The translations under genes and the position numbers were made by a program. The notes under the pieces were generated by a model. The model searched no databases. It was not told the DNA's origin and saw only the letters and a list, made by a program, of their open reading frames with translations. A stretch of 64,000 nt of DNA. Source: Armatimonadota bacterium. Its GTDB lineage: Bacteria > Armatimonadota > Zipacnadia > Zipacnadales > Zipacnadaceae. Below, one piece after another: positions 11,657 to 19,943 of the stretch (its first letter is position 1; every line of letters starts with the position of its first letter). The DNA is taken from the NCBI GenBank assembly GCA_036504235.1, contig DASXVN010000030.1:12677-76676 (forward strand). Direction: 5' to 3'.

Positions 11657-12709
11657 CTATGTGCCCGTTGAGGAAGTTGCCTTCATTATCTCTCGGAGTT
11701 CATCGGGAGACAGCAGTAGGCCTCCGCGGTGCAGCATGCGGTGGCAGTTGGCGCATACGCATACTGCACTTCTTTCGTCAGACAGTTTTGCAGCAGTCAG
11801 ACTGGCCAGAGGCTCAAGATGATGGCACTCGGCGAAGCCAATACCTCGCTCCCCATAGGCCTCGTCGTAAGAGAACCCACAGACTGTGCAGGTGTAATGC
11901 GCTTTGGCCTTAACCTTACTAGCGAAGAGAGGGTTCCGCATGTGGGCGCGTATCTCCACTATGCGCGTCTGCCCTTCCCAATACCCGCCGTCTACATCCT
12001 GCGGGATTTCGCTTTCGGCGGCTTCGCGCCGAGTAGCCGAGACCTGGTCGGCGGAACTTCGAACGGCGGCGCTCTGAACTGCAGAATCTTCTGGCGGGTA
12101 TGCGACAGTGTTTAGGAGCGATTCCAGTAATTCGATCTTCATGCCCAGAACCGCTTCTCGGTTGTCTCCCCACACTCGTCGGTGTTCGGATAGGGCATCT
12201 TCGAGAATCGCCGTCGCCTCTGTGTCTCCGATGTTTGTGATGTTTCGTCCAACTTGCTTCTTAAGCTCAGGCACGTGACGTTGCTTATCATATGGGACCT
12301 GCGCTTCCCGGAGAAAGAGTACTGCCCAATCCTGCGGCGCTCTAAGGTTCCACGGCGAGCCATCAGGAAGGATTTCATCGACTTCGTCAGGCCTGAACAC
12401 AGAACAGCAGCCATACAGGCCGACTATGAAGCGCTTGTGCCTCTTCGGATCCAATGAGTGAAAGAAACATATTCCTCGTCCATCGTTCGCCACATAGTAG
12501 TCTCTGGGTAAATTCCCAGTGGTTTCTACGTAGCCATGAATGACTTTCCGTCCTTCAACTGTCTTCCTGTTGCGTCGATTACGGAAGGCGAAGTTGTAGC
12601 CCTCGTGAGGGTTATTGCCGGACTTGACCCATCCGAAGTTGACTCCTTCCAGGGTGGGTTCGGTCCAATCGTTTGATGACCACGCGACGTTAGCCAGCAG
12701 GTGATTCAT
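11657..12709 (-). CDS. HNH endonuclease (McrA/COG3183-like C-terminal nuclease) with an uncharacterised ~250-aa N-terminal region
   Basis: C-terminal 'CTVCGFSYDEAYGERGIGFAECHHLEPL...VCVCANCHRMLH' is an HNH/Cys4 motif. The gene sits in a visibly lower-GC segment: two 60-nt lines counted by hand gave 47% and 55%. Confidence 0.8.
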   Translation of the reverse strand: MNHLLANVAWSSNDWTEPTLEGVNFGWVKSGNNPHEGYNFAFRNRRNRKTVEGRKVIHGYVETTGNLPRDYYVANDGRGICFFHSLDPKRHKRFIVGLYGCCSVFRPDEVDEILPDGSPWNLRAPQDWAVLFLREAQVPYDKQRHVPELKKQVGRNITNIGDTEATAILEDALSEHRRVWGDNREAVLGMKIELLESLLNTVAYPPEDSAVQSAAVRSSADQVSATRREAAESEIPQDVDGGYWEGQTRIVEIRAHMRNPLFASKVKAKAHYTCTVCGFSYDEAYGERGIGFAECHHLEPLASLTAAKLSDERSAVCVCANCHRMLHRGGLLLSPDELREIMKATSSTGT

Positions 12710-12738: not shown

Positions 12739-13536
12739 CTAGAGCCGCAAGGCGTCCGCGTACCCCAGCCCCTGCAGATAGTCGTGATTGTACTGCTGGT
12801 CGGTGTAGGGCGTGATCGTGGTCTGGTCTTGCTCGACACAGGCCCAGCCCCGGAAGCCGGCGCGCTCCAGGGACTCCACGCAGGCGGGCAGGTCAATTCC
12901 CGCGTTGCCGCGGCCCAGCTCGCAGAAGCGCACATGCTTGCCCTGCGCGTCGAGCACCGAGTCCTTCAGGTGACAGTGTACCACGCGGCGCCCCCACTTT
13001 TCCAGCAGGGCCAGCGGGTCGGCGCCTCCGGAGGCCGCGTGGCCCAGGTCCGCGCACCAGCCGATCTCGGTCTCGGCCAGGAAGCGCTCGATCTGCGCCG
13101 GCGTCTCGGTGACGGTGCCCAAGTGGTTGTGGAAGCCCGCGGGTATGCCCATTTCCTGGGCGAGCTGGTGCATCGCGGCGCAGTCGCGGACGAGCTGGGC
13201 GAAGACAGCCTCCTCGTCATCCTCGGGGCCGCAGTTGCCGCCGCCGACCATGAGCGCGGTGCCGCCGGTGACCTGGAGCATCTCGATTTTGCGGCGCGCC
13301 GTCTTCAGGTCCGCAACTGAGGCGGAAAAGCACACCAGGCGCAGGCCCAGGTCGTCGCACTCCTGCTTGACCGCCTCGGGTGCGGGCATCTGGTCGAAAA
13401 AGCCGCCGGTCATGTCCACGCCGGCAAAGCCGGTCAGCGCGACCTCCGCGAAGACCTGGCGATAGCCGACGGTGGAGCCGTACTGGTTGCCGTAAGCGAT
13501 CCAGCCGAAGGTCTGGCAGCCGATCTGGTAGGTCAT
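12739..13536 (-). CDS. Sugar phosphate isomerase/epimerase (xylose isomerase-like TIM barrel)
   Basis: '...GFAGVDM...', '...FHNHLGTV...' and '...HCHLKD...' are metal-ligand-type motifs of the AP-endonuclease-2/XI-like TIM family. The start was set at ATG 13536 (MTYQIG) with an AGGGAG RBS. Confidence 0.75.
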   Translation of the reverse strand: MTYQIGCQTFGWIAYGNQYGSTVGYRQVFAEVALTGFAGVDMTGGFFDQMPAPEAVKQECDDLGLRLVCFSASVADLKTARRKIEMLQVTGGTALMVGGGNCGPEDDEEAVFAQLVRDCAAMHQLAQEMGIPAGFHNHLGTVTETPAQIERFLAETEIGWCADLGHAASGGADPLALLEKWGRRVVHCHLKDSVLDAQGKHVRFCELGRGNAGIDLPACVESLERAGFRGWACVEQDQTTITPYTDQQYNHDYLQGLGYADALRL

Positions 13537-13705
13537 AGGGGGACTCCCTTCGCGCGCCGGGGCGACCGGCGCTTTACGGTGCGTACGGGGGGCCACTTCC
13601 CCGACGCCGTCCGGCCTTCCTCCCGCGCCGGCGCGAGGAGGAGAGTGTGGCGCGGACGCGGAACCATTACCACTCCACTGTTTCGACAGCATCGCCAGGT
13701 CCGCT

Positions 13706-14467
13706 ATGGGAACTTCCACCTCACATCGCTCTCCCGCCACGCCCGAATGGGACCGGGTACGGGAGCTATACGAGCTAGCTCACCCCTCGCCCCGCGAGGT
13801 GGTCAGCCGCATCGTGGCTGCTCTGGATGAAGCCACGCAGCAGCGGCTGCACGCGGAGGCGCCCGTCCGCTGCCTGGACGCCCTGCTGCACGGCAGCGCC
13901 GGCGCCGCCGCGCCGGGCGCCGTCTGGCCTACCGTCACCCCCTCCACCGGCTGCGCGGCGCTGGACTTGGCCGCTCATCTTACCTCCACCGCGGAAGCCA
14001 GTGTCGGCGCCGCCCGCGCCGGGTCGCTTTTCGGCACGCTGGCCCGCGAGGCGATCGCGCCCACGCTGATCGCCAGCCTGCAAGCGCCGGTGGCCTGGGT
14101 GGAGCTGCCGCCGGAGACCGTGCAGACCCAGTACGGGCGCTGGGCGCGCGAGGGGCGGCTCAGCGATCTGGCCGCCGAGTATGTCGCCCAGGACCTCGGC
14201 CAGACCTTCCGCTACTTCGTCACCCGCGACCTCGCCGACTTCGTGGGCCGGCCCCATCTGCCCGGGATCAACGCCGCCCGCGCCCTCACCGAGAGCGTCG
14301 CCGATTACTGCCGCACGCGCACCGGGCTGTCCCTCACCGCTCGTTGGGAACAGGATTTGCAGGAGGTCATGACGCTCGACCGGGAACAGCGCGTCCCGGC
14401 GCTCACACCTTTGATGAGCCAGGCCGTGCAGACCGGTCTGGCTAATCTCGCCGGGGGGGAGCGTTAA
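13706..14467 (+). CDS. Hypothetical protein beginning Met-Gly-Thr-Ser (QatB-like partner of the downstream QueC-family enzyme)
   Basis: A 253-aa ORF whose stop lies 2 nt before the GTG start of the next gene. The N-terminus 'MGTSTSHRSP' would expose Gly after Met removal. I recognise no catalytic motif. Confidence 0.65.
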   Translation: MGTSTSHRSPATPEWDRVRELYELAHPSPREVVSRIVAALDEATQQRLHAEAPVRCLDALLHGSAGAAAPGAVWPTVTPSTGCAALDLAAHLTSTAEASVGAARAGSLFGTLAREAIAPTLIASLQAPVAWVELPPETVQTQYGRWAREGRLSDLAAEYVAQDLGQTFRYFVTRDLADFVGRPHLPGINAARALTESVADYCRTRTGLSLTARWEQDLQEVMTLDREQRVPALTPLMSQAVQTGLANLAGGER

Positions 14468-14469
14468 TC

Positions 14470-15813
14470 GTGCGGGGCTTCGTGGTCCAGGCGGAAGGGC
14501 TCCCGGCGGCGGTCCGCGCGCAAGCGGAACGGCGCGCCCCCGTGTGGCTGGATTGGCGCTCGGCGCAGCGCAACGCCGCCTGCGACCACTCCGAGCTGCC
14601 GCTGCCGAGCGGCCCAGAGCGGGCGGTCGCCCGGGACTTGCTGGACATGGCCACCGCGATCTATCTGGCAGATCTGGCCGTGCCGCGCGGGCGCAATGAG
14701 GACTTTGTACGCGAGTTGGAGCTGGTGCTGCCGGTGCGCGAGCCGGACTTCTGGCAGGCGCAGGAGCCGCACCTGGCCTGGCTGCTGCAGCGGCTGTGCG
14801 GCGACCAGGTACACCTGGAGTTCCATCCGCGCGAGGGCGAGGACTCGCCGGTCGAGTCGGCCCGGCCCTGGATTGAGGCGGACAGCGTGTCGCTGCTCTC
14901 CGGCGGGCTGGATTCCGCCGCGGGGGCGGCGCTGCTGCTGCGCACCGACCGGCGGCCCCGGCTGATCATGCACCGCTCAGGCAATCCGGCGGTGGCGCAG
15001 GCCCAGGACCGCCTCACCGATACCCTGGCCCAGAAATGGCCCGACCAGTTCCGGCTCAGCGCGGTCCGGCTGGCGCCCAGTTCGCACCGCACCGGGGCGC
15101 TGCCCTTCCCCGGGCCGGAACTGCGGGAGAGCACCCGGCGCTGCCGCTCGCTGCTCTACCTGGCGCTGGGCGCGGTGGCGGCGGCGGGAGAGGGCGTGGA
15201 CGAGCTGTACCTGTATGACAACGCGGTGCTGACCTCGGCAGTGCCGCTGTCCGCGGCCCGCTGCGGCAGCTTCACTACGCACAGCACCCATCCCGCGGTT
15301 CTGGCGCAGTTCAACGAACTGCTGCGGGCGGCCGGTCTGACCGTCCAGGTGCAGAACCCCTTCCTCTACCAGGCCAAGGGCGAGCTGATCCGCACCTGCC
15401 TGCAGCCGGTGTTCAGCCCGCAGGAGATTCTCCAGACCGTCTCCTGCTGGGCGGTCGGCCGCCAGCAGCGCCAATGCGGCGGCTGCGTGCCCTGCCTGCT
15501 GCGGCGCATCTCGCTGCTCGCGGCGGGCCTGCCGGATGAGGTCTACGAGCGCGACCTGCTGGGGCATCCCTATCACTACCAGGACACCGACGGCCACCGC
15601 AACCTCACCGACCTGCTGGGCTGGGCCGCCTGCGTGCTGTCCACGCCGGAGCTGCGGCTGCCGCTGGAGTACCCCTCGCTGCTGGAGGTCCAGGCCGGCG
15701 GTGCGCAGGTGATGGAGGTAGTCCGCGCCCTGCGCCGCCAGGCTACCGAGATCTTCGACGTGGTCCAGCGCCACTTCCCGGCGGCCGCGGCGCTGATGAA
15801 CGACGGGCGCTAG
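14470..15813 (+). CDS. QueC-family PP-loop ATP pyrophosphatase with ~140-aa N-terminal and ~100-aa C-terminal extensions (QatC-like)
   Basis: PP-loop 'SLLSGGLDSAAG' at aa 141-152. QueC-type Zn site 'C326-x9-C336-x2-C339-x2-C342' (SCWAVGRQQRQCGGCVPC). GGGGGAG RBS lies 9 nt before the GTG start. Confidence 0.8.
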   Translation: MRGFVVQAEGLPAAVRAQAERRAPVWLDWRSAQRNAACDHSELPLPSGPERAVARDLLDMATAIYLADLAVPRGRNEDFVRELELVLPVREPDFWQAQEPHLAWLLQRLCGDQVHLEFHPREGEDSPVESARPWIEADSVSLLSGGLDSAAGAALLLRTDRRPRLIMHRSGNPAVAQAQDRLTDTLAQKWPDQFRLSAVRLAPSSHRTGALPFPGPELRESTRRCRSLLYLALGAVAAAGEGVDELYLYDNAVLTSAVPLSAARCGSFTTHSTHPAVLAQFNELLRAAGLTVQVQNPFLYQAKGELIRTCLQPVFSPQEILQTVSCWAVGRQQRQCGGCVPCLLRRISLLAAGLPDEVYERDLLGHPYHYQDTDGHRNLTDLLGWAACVLSTPELRLPLEYPSLLEVQAGGAQVMEVVRALRRQATEIFDVVQRHFPAAAALMNDGR

Positions 15814-15888
15814 GCGGCCGCCTCTTGCCTCCACCCCCCCGGAGCGCTATGCTGGTGAGGGGATTCTCCCCGCCGAGGTGCTCTGGGC

Positions 15889-16806
15889 ATGACTCGCAAG
15901 CAATTCCTCAAATTGGGACTGGGACTGGCCGGCGCCTACGTGGTGGGCGGTACGGGCGCGCGGGTGCTCTGGGAGAAGTACGACCTGCGCCTCACCGAGT
16001 GGGAGGTGCCGCTGCCCCGCCTGCCCCGCGACCTCGAGGGCCTGCGCGTCGCCCACCTCTCCGACCTGCACCTGTCGCCCGAGGTCCCCTTCGACTACCT
16101 CGTGGAGTCCCTGGAGAAATCTAGCCAGCTCGGCGCGGACGTCGTGGTGCTCACCGGGGACATTCTTTCCACCTACTACAAGCTGATTGAGCCGTACCGC
16201 GCCGCCCTGGCCGCGGTTTCCGCGCCCCGGGGCAAGTACGCGGTCCTGGGCAACCACGACTACTTCTCGCGCCGCACCCGCGCCGTAGTGACCATGCTGC
16301 AGGAGACCGGCTGGACCGTGCTGCGCAACGAGAGCGTGCCCCTGCCGGGCACCGGCGGGCGGGTCTGGCTGCTGGGCCTGGACGATCCGGTCACCGGCCA
16401 CGATGATATGGACAAGACCATGCACGGGGTGCCGCCGGAGGCGGTGCGGGTGATGCTGGCGCATACCCCGGACGTGATCGGTCCGGCGGCCGAGCACCAC
16501 GTGGACCTGCTGCTGGCGGGCCACACCCACGGCGGGCAGGTGGTGCTGCCGTTCATCGGCCCGCTGGCGGTGCCCTCGGAGTACGGGGCCAAGTATGCCT
16601 GGGGGCTGTTCGACTACGCGGGCACGCGCCTGGAGGTCACCCGGGGCGTGGGGCTGGTGCCGCCGCGGGTACGCTTCAATTGCCCCCCGGAGATCGCCCT
16701 GCTGACCCTGCGCCGCGGCGAGTGGCCCCTGTCGGCCGGCAATCCCTCGCTGGTGACACATCCCTACCGGCGCCTACGGCTCTTGCGCCGGCGCCTTTTC
16801 CGTTAG
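15889..16806 (+). CDS. Calcineurin-like metallophosphoesterase with an N-terminal Tat/TM-like segment
   Basis: 'VAHLSDLHL', 'LTGD', 'GNHDY' and 'GHTHGGQ' metallophosphoesterase motifs. The N-terminus is 'MTRKQFLKLGLGLAGAYVVGG'. Confidence 0.85.
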   Translation: MTRKQFLKLGLGLAGAYVVGGTGARVLWEKYDLRLTEWEVPLPRLPRDLEGLRVAHLSDLHLSPEVPFDYLVESLEKSSQLGADVVVLTGDILSTYYKLIEPYRAALAAVSAPRGKYAVLGNHDYFSRRTRAVVTMLQETGWTVLRNESVPLPGTGGRVWLLGLDDPVTGHDDMDKTMHGVPPEAVRVMLAHTPDVIGPAAEHHVDLLLAGHTHGGQVVLPFIGPLAVPSEYGAKYAWGLFDYAGTRLEVTRGVGLVPPRVRFNCPPEIALLTLRRGEWPLSAGNPSLVTHPYRRLRLLRRRLFR

Positions 16807-16896
16807 GGGACCTGCGATTTGCCGCCGGGGAGGAATTGGGGCGGCCGCGCGGAATTTGAGGGGGTAGTTACCAGTCCCTTCAGGAGGTGAAACCCC

Positions 16897-17085
16897 ATGG
16901 CAGCTCCAATCGTGGATGCGGACCTGTGCACCGGGTGTGGCTTGTGCATGCAGATCGCCGAGAACACCTTCGTCCTCAACGACGAGGGCGTCGCGGAAGT
17001 CAGCAACGCCACCGGTGATGATTCGGACACCATTCAGGAGGCAATTGACTCCTGTCCGGTGGAAGCCATTTCGTGGGGCGAGTAG
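16897..17085 (+). CDS. Small single-cluster [4Fe-4S] ferredoxin, copy 1
   Basis: 'CTGCGLC ... DSCPVEAISW' (CxxCxxC...CP). AGGAGGTGA RBS. Confidence 0.85.
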   Translation: MAAPIVDADLCTGCGLCMQIAENTFVLNDEGVAEVSNATGDDSDTIQEAIDSCPVEAISWGE

Positions 17086-17197
17086 TAACTCGCGCCGCGC
17101 CGTAGGAAAGTAGGGGACGCGGGCGGTCGCTCGGCTGCCCGCGTCCCGCTGGTCTAGCGACAGGATAAAGGACCATCAAGCGAAAGAGGGATCAATC

Positions 17198-17419
17198 ATG
17201 GCAGTACAAGTAGATGCTGATCTGTGCACCGGCTGTGGCCTCTGCGCCCAAGTGGCGGAGGAGGTCTTTGCGGTGAATGACGAGGGCCTCGCCGAGGTCA
17301 ACGCGGCGGCGGATTGCCAGCCGGATTCGTGCGCGGCGGAGAGCCCCTGCTCATACTGCGCCAACGTGCAGGAGGCTATCGACTCCTGTCCGGTGGAAGC
17401 CCTTTCGTGGAGCGAGTAG
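17198..17419 (+). CDS. Small ferredoxin, copy 2, with an inserted four-Cys segment
   Basis: It has the same 'CTGCGLC...DSCPVEALSW' frame as copy 1, plus the insertion 'ADCQPDSCAAESPCSYCAN' (C-x4-C-x5-C-x2-C). Confidence 0.85.
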   Translation: MAVQVDADLCTGCGLCAQVAEEVFAVNDEGLAEVNAAADCQPDSCAAESPCSYCANVQEAIDSCPVEALSWSE

Positions 17420-17448
17420 TAACTCGCACCGCGCCGGAGGTCAATGCC

Positions 17449-17640
17449 ATGCGCGTACCGTACGTGGACCCCGATTTGTGTCAGGGAGCTTACATCTGCG
17501 AGAGCATCGCTCCGCGCACCTTCAAGGTCAATGACGAGGGAGTCTCGGAGGTGGTCAACCCGACCGGGGACGAGGAGACCGCTATTCAGCAGGCCATCGA
17601 CTCTTGCCCGTATGGGGCGATCTCCTGGAAGGAAGCATAG
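17449..17640 (+). CDS. Small ferredoxin, copy 3, [3Fe-4S]-type ligand pattern
   Basis: 'CQGAYIC...DSCPYGAISW' (C-x2-A-x2-C...CP). The start was set at ATG 17449 with a GGAGG RBS. Confidence 0.8.
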   Translation: MRVPYVDPDLCQGAYICESIAPRTFKVNDEGVSEVVNPTGDEETAIQQAIDSCPYGAISWKEA

Positions 17641-19285: not shown

Positions 19286-19636
19286 CTATCCCTCTTGCAG
19301 GTTGCGCAGCAGAGTCTCTACCTGCTTTTGCAGCTTGGGCAAGTGTTCCTGGATGACCTGCCAGACCTGGTCGTGCTCGACCAGTTCGTACCCATGGATC
19401 AACAGGTTGCGGAAGGCAATAATGCGCGGGTAGTCGCCGATGGCCGCCGCGGTCTCCGGATCGTGCTGGGCTAAGCGTTTCATGGCCTCGCCGATGATCT
19501 CGAAATGCCGCTCCACCGCGGCATGCACCACGGGGTCCGCCACGTAATCGGCCAGCGTCTTGCCCGCCGTCAATTGCAGAATGAAGTCAGCGGAAGTACG
19601 CAGGTCGTGAAGCCACTTGGGCGACTTAGGCTGCAT
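19286..19636 (-). CDS. hepT: HepT-like (DUF86) ribonuclease toxin
   Basis: R-x4-H-x-Y motif 'RNLLIHGY'. 116 aa. Overlaps the upstream MNT gene by 11 nt. Confidence 0.85.
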   Translation of the reverse strand: MQPKSPKWLHDLRTSADFILQLTAGKTLADYVADPVVHAAVERHFEIIGEAMKRLAQHDPETAAAIGDYPRIIAFRNLLIHGYELVEHDQVWQVIQEHLPKLQKQVETLLRNLQEG

Positions 19637-19943
19637 ACAGAACCCTCCGGGTACGCGCTGCTTCGCGGGCGAAATAGGGGTTTTCGAAGCTGCGCGCGTG
19701 GGACATGACCAGGTCCACCGGGCGGCCTATCAGCGCCGCTAAGTCTTCGCGGAGGGCGAAGTAGCGCTCCAGCCAGGCGCCCAGTTCGGTGCCCGGCGCG
19801 AACTCCACGATGAAGTCAACGTCCGAGCGCTGCGGGTCGAAATCTCCCTCCGCCGCCGAGCCGAAGACCTCCAGCCGCGCCACGCCGTACCGGCGGCACA
19901 ACTCCTCCAAGGCGGCGCGATGGGTTTCGAGTAGGTCAATCAT
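19626..19943 (-). CDS. mntA: MntA-type nucleotidyltransferase antitoxin
   Basis: 'VFGSAAEGDFDPQRSDVDFIVEF' (GS-x9-12-D-x-D minimal nucleotidyltransferase motif). GAGGAGG RBS. Confidence 0.85.
   Translation of the reverse strand: MIDLLETHRAALEELCRRYGVARLEVFGSAAEGDFDPQRSDVDFIVEFAPGTELGAWLERYFALREDLAALIGRPVDLVMSHARSFENPYFAREAARTRRVLYAA

Follow-up and report, generated by a model that had tools for sequence, protein, structure and literature searches.

A candidate minimal QatBC-type gene pair without qatA or qatD in an Armatimonadota bacterium

The window analysed here is a stretch of 64,000 nucleotides from an Armatimonadota bacterium (assembly GCA_036504235.1, contig DASXVN010000030.1, positions 12,677 to 76,676 of the forward strand; all positions below are those of the window). 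It contains, on the plus strand, two adjacent genes, encoding a protein of 253 amino acids (aa) at 13706..14467, hereafter the partner, and a 447-aa enzyme at 14470..15813, which a preliminary description, made from the sequence alone, had singled out as an orphan pair resembling QatB and QatC of the QatABCD defence system. The pair probably represents an autonomous module of QatBC type, one protein of which would modify the other and for which, by analogy with the systems studied experimentally, anti-phage defence without QatA and QatD would be the most likely role. Rather than a new kind of system, it represents a minimal form of QatABCD occurring in nature, in which only the two-gene core is kept.

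The 447-aa protein is classified, on the basis of sequence profiles and of a predicted structure, as a QatC-type enzyme, and neither as a biosynthetic QueC nor as a Cap9. The PADLOC QatC profile matches it with an E-value of 1.1e-60, and a phmmer comparison aligned its residues 53-360 to the solved QatC proteins of E. coli and P. aeruginosa (9vlk_A, 3.8e-38; 9zee_B, 5.7e-35). An AlphaFold2 (AF2) model, built from 29 homologues and having a predicted local distance difference test score (pLDDT) of 91.2, was searched by Foldseek, and matched 9y02_B, a QatC chain, over 471 columns (E 2.7e-22; TM-score 0.73 relative to the query and 0.76 relative to the target). The entries 9y01 and 9y02 are QatB-QatC crystal structures, and the full-length fold match to their QatC chain indicates that the N- and C-terminal extensions specific to QatC are present. 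The following matches, to YcfA, Cap9 and ThiI, were far weaker (E>=1e-3); Cap9 (9nto_B) matches the enzyme in the PP-loop region alone at the sequence level (E 0.056) and gives a TM-score of 0.31 of the query in Foldseek. The QatC-like identity initially proposed was therefore confirmed by the PADLOC profile, the solved sequences and the overall fold, against an assignment to QueC, ThiI or TilS.

The enzyme is laid out, over 14470..15813 (+), as an N-terminal extension, a QueC-type Rossmann core and a C-terminal helical extension. The PP-loop SGGLDS, the motif binding the pyrophosphate of ATP, is found at residues 144-149 (14899..14916, +) and aligns to the SGGLDS of E. coli QatC; S144, G145, G146, D148 and S149 are invariant in the 29 homologues. 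Equally invariant are T270 and P275 of the substrate-site motif T270-H-S272-T-H274-P275 (15277..15294, +), which aligns to T276-R-T278-T-H280-P281 of E. coli QatC, where roles have been assigned to the Thr and His-Pro residues (PMC13279940, PMC13639016). The same holds for C326, C336, C339, C342 and R345 of the Zn site, C326-x9-C336-x2-C339-x2-C342 followed by LLRR (15445..15495, +), which aligns to CGxCxxC..RR of solved QatC; both the PP-loop and this QueC-type four-Cys site were located where they had first been reported. The signatures described for QatC include SGGxDS, D63, D..R..WxR, DxW/YxxxF, RxRxxxF/Y, T276/T278, HP, P(x)4TK, Cys4+RR and Y376 (PMC13329287, PMC13279940). The window enzyme keeps D56, D68, R73, R81, D112...F118, SGGLDS, R224xR226xxxY230, T270, H274-P275, K303, the four Cys, R345 and Y359. 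Its departures include F79 and V114 in place of two Trp (W88 and W123 in E. coli), A302 in place of a Thr, and a first Zn spacer of x9, compared with x19 in canonical QatC (PMC13279940, PMC13329287).

The partner resembles QatB in its N-terminus, MGTSTSHRSPATPEW, where M1, T3, S4, R8, S9, P10, T12, W15, V18, R19, L21 and Y22 are invariant in 22 homologues and Gly2 is nearly so; the N-terminal consensus of the partner homologues, MGTSTSHRSPATPEWERVRELY, is nearly invariant. Canonical QatBs from the QatABCD loci fetched for comparison read MGTSKGYKMPSGGDW, having MGTS, Pro10 and Trp15 in common with the window partner, and the MGTS...P...W pattern is shared by the partner, canonical QatB and every other type of QatC-adjacent partner. 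Residues 1-22 (MGTSTSHRSPATPEWDRVRELY; 13706..13771, +) are regarded as a putative N-terminal acceptor motif, with Gly2, after removal of Met, as the predicted modification site.

The partner has 52 clusters of close homologues, all of about 250 aa. When 1.84 billion representatives were searched with a profile, the class, a second one beside canonical QatB, grew to 321 clusters, which include forms of about 190 aa and 'MGH' forms of about 260 aa. The AF2 model of the protein (pLDDT 90.3) is all-alpha, with 12 helices, the first at residues 13-21 (pLDDT 94 for residues 11-20). No recognisable domain had been seen in this protein at the outset, and none emerged here, since PADLOC, Pfam and NCBIfam (all three at E<=1) and the PDB sequences gave no match.

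Conservation of the pair was evaluated by a scan for the QatC family, using one genome per species, which yielded 80 loci; the closest 38, at 38-70% identity, were taken as related loci. In 38/38 of them the gene immediately preceding that of the enzyme, on the same strand, encodes an MGTS partner, so that the upstream Met-Gly reading frame is indeed conserved and co-inherited with the enzyme. According to their taxon labels, 33 of these loci belong to Armatimonadota, Armatimonadia or Ca. Zipacnadia and two to candidate division WS1, while three are labelled only 'bacterium'. The whole set of loci containing B and C only forms a single clade in a neighbour-joining tree of the QatC proteins. 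The ratio of nonsynonymous to synonymous substitution rates (dN/dS) of B and C ranges from 0.11 to 0.38, with dS similar for both genes within each genome pair, and indicates that both are under purifying selection. Codon usage is host-like in both genes, their GC content at third codon positions (GC3) being 0.85 and 0.92.

The pair is found without QatA and QatD, in agreement with what had been noted earlier. Models for QatA, QatD, CD-NTase and Cap proteins matched none of the 40 window proteins. A tblastn search of the window with QatA, QatD, canonical QatB and C2 queries found no homologue, and C4 queries produced just two chance-level matches (about 31 bits) inside unrelated window genes; C2 and C4 are accessory genes of a four-gene form presented below. 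Positive controls for QatA and QatD detection worked on canonical loci. Neither gene was found in the 38 related loci, where clustering of all neighbouring open reading frames (ORFs) also revealed no third gene common to the clade. As for queD, queE, queF and tgt, reported as missing from the surroundings, none is on record within +/-10 kb of the pair, and the same applies to KAP NTPase and TatD domains.

A scheme of action can be drawn by analogy with the work on E. coli and P. aeruginosa, which is the source of what is assumed here on the complex, its chemistry and donor molecule, and a role in defence. The partner and enzyme genes would be co-transcribed and are probably translationally coupled. 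Methionine aminopeptidase would remove Met1 of the partner, a removal which Gly at position 2 permits, and expose Gly2. The conserved N-terminal peptide GTSTSHRSPATPEW... would then insert into the QatC-like active site; the enzyme, with ATP at the PP-loop, would adenylate a carboxylate, by analogy that of 7-carboxy-7-deazaguanine or of a related acid, and the activated acid would be joined to Gly2 through its alpha-amine. The active species would be either the partner so modified or the complex of B and C.

Artificially truncated QatBC was reported in 2026 to suffice against lambda-vir and P1 (Gao, Wassarman and Kranzusch, PMC13279940; Wang et al., PMC13434339). The QatB substitution G2D abolishes defence, and MGTS, Pro16 and Trp18 of QatB are conserved or essential (PMC13279940). 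The QatB tail sits in the active site of QatC, and an NDG-modified GTSKAY peptide was found by liquid chromatography-tandem mass spectrometry (PMC13639016). The relatives studied by experiment, QatC and Cap9, act in phage defence (PMC13279940, PMC13639016, bioRxiv 10.1101/2025.04.06.647259).

Several observations weigh against the interpretation of the pair as a defensive QatBC-type module, a first group of which concerns the partner. Its body is missed by the QatB models (PADLOC QatB, NF041924, PF28083), and the same libraries recognise, as a positive control, canonical QatB from QatABCD loci; in precomputed annotation, PF28083 is reported on canonical QatBs and on 0 of the window-type partner homologues. 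The partner is also devoid of the disordered Gly/Ser-rich tail, 30-90 aa long, of canonical QatB, and since order begins in its model at about residue 13, docking may follow a different geometry. Foldseek comparison of the partner model with the PDB gave no significant match (best E 0.25), and no QatB chain was found among the 50 best of 206 matches with E<=10; this negative is meaningful, because the QatC model matched 9y01/9y02 in the same library, yet weak for an all-alpha protein. Comparison with canonical QatB by hhalign gave 9% with small alignments (22 versus 5 sequences) and a borderline 41.8% with broad ones (36 versus 30 sequences; E 2.7e-4 over 119 C-terminal columns), in which FRYFVxRDxxxFVG of the partner is paired with xxNDIG of canonical QatB. 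From these alignments, homology of the partner body to QatB is possible, if unproven; the QatB-like character attributed to the partner thus stands for the N-terminal 22 residues or so and for its co-inheritance, and not for the body, which the QatB models and Foldseek miss.

Further points of this kind come from the enzyme and from the genomic context. The score of the enzyme against the NCBIfam QatC model (NF041925), 220.6 bits, is under the 280-bit equivalog cut-off, as is that of a non-canonical QatC from locus L069 (208.7 bits), and S272 replaces the second invariant Thr of canonical QatC (T278), here and in most of the clade. The reaction of canonical QatC has not yet been reconstituted in vitro (PMC13279940). 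The neighbours of the pair are housekeeping genes, which remain syntenic with it inside each subclade. No recurrent defence gene was revealed when 138 neighbour proteins, sampled from related loci, were scanned with PADLOC. In one subclade, moreover, the pairwise identity of B and C (62-67%) lies close to that of the flanking genes (63-81%). No partner homologues were found on plasmids or phages, and the plasmid search with the enzyme matched canonical qatC alone, at about 30% identity.

These contextual data also speak for an explanation which, although unlikely, is the least so among the alternatives, namely that the chemistry is the same and the pair is a lineage-specific, non-immune housekeeping or regulatory protein-modification system of Armatimonadota. 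In addition to native codon usage, the absence of the partner from plasmids and phages and the lack of defence-gene enrichment nearby, it is favoured by the monophyly of the clade, with its predominance of Armatimonadota, Armatimonadia and Ca. Zipacnadia labels (33/38), and by the gene order of the subclade just mentioned, C11/C12 - B - C - GNAT - SurA-like peptidyl-prolyl isomerase - CapA-like. C11 and C12 are two large proteins, C12 being assigned to the Wzz/tyrosine-kinase type by eye only. In this subclade the resemblance in identity between B/C and flanking genes is accompanied by a correlation of B/C divergence with that of the SurA-like gene (rho 0.69). Another subclade has the order HAD - DHDPS-like - two small proteins - B - C; immediate neighbours thus vary between subclades, and the pair is at most a putative 'core gene'. 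Against a housekeeping role it also counts that every experimentally studied relative (QatC, Cap9) works in phage defence, and that a probable PD-(D/E)xK nuclease, of a kind typical of defence, accompanies partners of this class in a sister clade. The housekeeping context and the apparent vertical inheritance leave room for a non-immune role.

A wider proposal, speculative and rather doubtful at present, would make of the BC-only clade an old, vertically inherited system for N-terminal nucleobase-protein conjugation, with a partner either structurally unrelated or very remotely related to QatB. Either the modified partner would by itself be the complete immune effector, or the system would have a non-immune role in the cell; in both cases the tag of about 22 residues, together with the QatC cavity, would be a portable unit, which was combined on four or more occasions with different bodies and accessory genes. 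If true, a non-immune role would extend QueC-type protein modification, for the first time, beyond phage defence.

A three-gene system, with the membrane-anchored metallophosphoesterase encoded at 15889..16806 (+) taking the place of QatD as effector, is improbable. The gene is on the same strand, 75 nt downstream of the enzyme gene, with no terminator-like site in between, its product has a weak match to PADLOC PDC-S10 (E 2.4e-4), and the closest relative L003 carries a homologue downstream, at 66% identity. This is, however, its only recurrence in the 38 related loci, and the gene is separated there from QatC by about 600 bp and another ORF; in addition, it is the YaeI/LpxG family that the protein matches best, at 134 and 119 bits, both under the cut-offs. 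The phosphoesterase was rejected as a third component, being conserved in one relative alone, and the suggestion that it might act as a substitute effector is not upheld.

Still less credible is a decaying, non-functional remnant of a QatABCD operon, left after loss of qatA and qatD. Both genes are indeed absent, and rare truncated qat forms are known from a published survey (PMC13434339), but the selection and conservation data already contradict this explanation: undamaged reading frames occur in 38 species-level genomes and over 100 metagenomic protein clusters, dN/dS is 0.11-0.38, the catalytic and acceptor motifs are invariant, and the clade, with 38-70% identity, is an old and monophyletic one. 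A biosynthetic QueC (7-cyano-7-deazaguanine synthase), to which a Pfam QueC match limited to the C-terminal Zn region (aa 276-349, 32 bits) and the public names of relatives would point, is hardly tenable, given a TIGR00364 score of 17.2 bits versus a cut-off of 150.3, a PP-loop at residue 144 of a 447-aa protein with QatC-type extensions, Thr/Ser at the positions where QueC and Cap9 use Tyr/Asp to read deazaguanine (PMC13279940), the lack of queD/E/F nearby and the failure of E. coli QatC to rescue a queC deletion (PMC13329287). NCBI and JGI records give relatives of the enzyme the name '7-cyano-7-deazaguanine synthase'; this naming is likely a misannotation, which could mislead metabolic reconstructions of queuosine synthesis.

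The two ORFs have the coordinates and strand originally assigned to them. The partner gene ends with TAA at 14465-14467 and the enzyme gene starts with GTG at 14470, leaving a gap of 2 nt. A Shine-Dalgarno-like run, GGGGGGGAG, was read from the sequence at 14453..14461 (+), within the end of the partner gene and 8 nt before the GTG; the run and the 2-nt gap would fit translational coupling of the two genes. The sugar-isomerase gene upstream, on the minus strand and with a called start at 13536, diverges from the partner gene. The region between them (13537..13705, 169 bp), delimited by gene calls mapped to the window, is a presumed promoter region, a role which is conjectural because a consensus scan revealed no sigma-70-like site between the two genes. 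The promoter and terminator scan of 13300-17000 was uninformative.

Public gene calls, available for the 409,752-bp JGI metagenome contig to which the window belongs, shorten both proteins, to 222 aa for the partner and 423 aa for the enzyme, by removing 31 codons from the former, with loss of the MGTS start, and 24 codons from the latter. As the deposited annotation truncates both, the MGTS and GTG starts rest on homologue alignment and on structure models. The longer forms are backed by the size of the homologues (250-260 aa for partners, 440-455 aa for enzymes), by the conservation of the partner, which is highest over its first 22 residues, and by the AF2 model of the enzyme, in which residues 2-7 form a confident beta-strand.

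The neighbours named in the preliminary description are all present, i.e. the sugar isomerase (PF01261), the metallophosphoesterase, a low-GC HNH gene and a HepT/MntA pair. The HNH gene (11657-12709, minus strand) encodes a 350-aa protein, and the window GC content falls there to 0.57-0.63, as compared with about 0.70. An HNH/CxxC region is found at the C-terminal end of its product, which weakly matches a type IV methyl-directed restriction enzyme (mREase_IV, E 6.6e-6). The gene is probably a recent insertion, since it has no tblastn homologue in L002, the closest relative retaining the upstream flank. In that relative neither a full-length HNH gene nor a full-length sugar-isomerase gene was found, a 29-aa sugar-isomerase fragment being the only match; an alcohol dehydrogenase neighbour recurs in L002 alone. 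An overlapping toxin-antitoxin pair, HepT-like and MntA-like (nucleotidyltransferase), is located 3.5 kb downstream, at 19286-19943 (minus strand), and is not conserved beside the pair in relatives. The phosphoesterase gene is followed by three small tandem ferredoxin-like genes (Fer4_13/Fer4_15; 16897-17640, +), beyond which a GGACT/AIG2-like gene and then a DUF362 gene are found on the other strand. The downstream context of the pair is metabolic, not defence-related.

PADLOC matches among the 40 window proteins are isolated, and include HEAT-ARM_XIII (7e-35), PDC-S09 (5e-33), mad3 (2e-27), an AriA/GajA-like ATPase and others. None of them falls in the ten largest window proteins, besides mREase_IV in the HNH gene and PDC-S10 in the phosphoesterase. 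Their family names suggest that they may correspond to generic domains such as HEAT repeats and ABC-type ATPases. A defence-island reading of the region was considered and rejected, as the matches in the window are isolated and the 138 sampled neighbour proteins contain no recurrent defence family. The weak defence-island flavour initially perceived finds no support, the neighbours being metabolic or housekeeping genes both here and in relatives, and L002 being without the full-length HNH and sugar-isomerase genes.

Other architectures were observed around enzymes of the QatC family. Canonical QatA-B-C-D is among the recovered loci. An unnamed four-gene form, composed of C2 (about 311 aa), a short MGTS partner (about 190 aa), a QatC-like enzyme and C4 (about 205 aa), occurs in about 20 loci from many phyla, and constitutes a sister clade to that of the window in the QatC tree. 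It was located in L041, L042, L046, L049, L052-L054, L056, L057, L061, L066, L072 and L079, at about 8.4-11.8 kb within each. C2 contains a conserved PD..(10)..D.K motif, with a weak REase_II match, and is, from its sequence, a probable PD-(D/E)xK nuclease; C4 has no match in any library. The short partner of this form is related to the window partner (hhalign 98.9%, E 2.7e-17). In four loci (L069, L071, L077, L078), 'MGH...' partners of about 260 aa are associated with a QatC of 640-700 aa, having a C-terminal extension of 200-250 aa. In Pyrinomonadaceae (L047, L050), two proteins, C88 and C89, of 768 aa and of 441 aa respectively, the second TPR-like by eye, precede an 'MGSQ' partner and QatC.

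The principle of a BC pair sufficient by itself is already known, whereas a naturally occurring lineage with B and C only, and the divergent class of partner found in it, appear to be undescribed in the QatBC literature found. A published survey of 631 qat clusters reports 98.1% full qatABCD and six rare forms, none of them BC-only (Wang et al., PMC13434339), and about 34% of the QatC cluster was described as having qatA or qatD nearby, the remainder being left undescribed (Libby et al., PMC13329287). The expectation that a BC-only architecture would be new therefore goes too far, QatBC sufficiency having been published in 2026, and it is the natural lineage and partner class that appear unreported. 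Such systems are invisible in defence censuses, because PADLOC, NCBIfam and Pfam miss the partners, the enzymes are misnamed and the MGTS starts are cut by gene callers. The long retention of B and C only in a natural lineage implies that they function stably together without ATPase or nuclease, and offers a minimal system for biochemistry; the divergent partner class indicates that conservation resides in the N-terminal tag and in the enzyme, and not in the QatB body.

Among known systems, QatABCD of E. coli and P. aeruginosa (9y01/9y02, 9vlk, 9zee) is the one to be compared first. It has the same order, B followed by C on one strand; its QatC has the same three-part fold, signature motifs, Thr at the deazaguanine-reading position and Zn site as the window enzyme, and its QatB has the MGTS start and Pro/Trp at about positions 10-15, as found in the window partner. 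QatABCD differs in having qatA and qatD, both missing from the window pair and its 38 relatives, and a QatB whose helical domain, unlike that of the window partner, is recognised by PF28083, NF041924 and PADLOC and is accompanied by a long disordered linker. Canonical QatC has a Zn spacer of x19, the second Thr and W88/W123, where the window enzyme has x9, S272 and F79/V114. The window pair is chromosomal, mostly found in Armatimonadota and syntenic with housekeeping genes, rather than carried on plasmids or in defence islands.

The four-gene C2/C4 form uses a partner of the same class and an enzyme of the sister QatC clade, and differs from the window clade by its two accessory genes, its partner of about 190 aa and its distribution over many phyla. 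The Cap9-CD-NTase pair of type IV CBASS (cyclic oligonucleotide-based antiphage signalling system; 9nto) likewise combines a QueC-family PP-loop enzyme with an adjacent Met-Gly partner, which is deazaguanylated on the alpha-amine of Gly2. Cap9 is a minimal QueC core of about 185 aa, in which the Tyr/Asp nucleobase-reading residues are kept, whereas the window enzyme is 447 aa long and has Thr/Ser in their place; the substrate of Cap9 is the CD-NTase, found together with the TGT-like protein Cap10, neither of which occurs at the window pair. Biosynthetic QueC (TIGR00364, PF06508) shares with the window enzyme the SGGxDS PP-loop and the C-terminal four-Cys Zn site, its spacer of x8 being near the x9 of the enzyme, which is twice as long as QueC (about 220 aa), carries an internal PP-loop, yields no QueC catalytic motifs (17 bits, cut-off 150) and is not part of a que operon.

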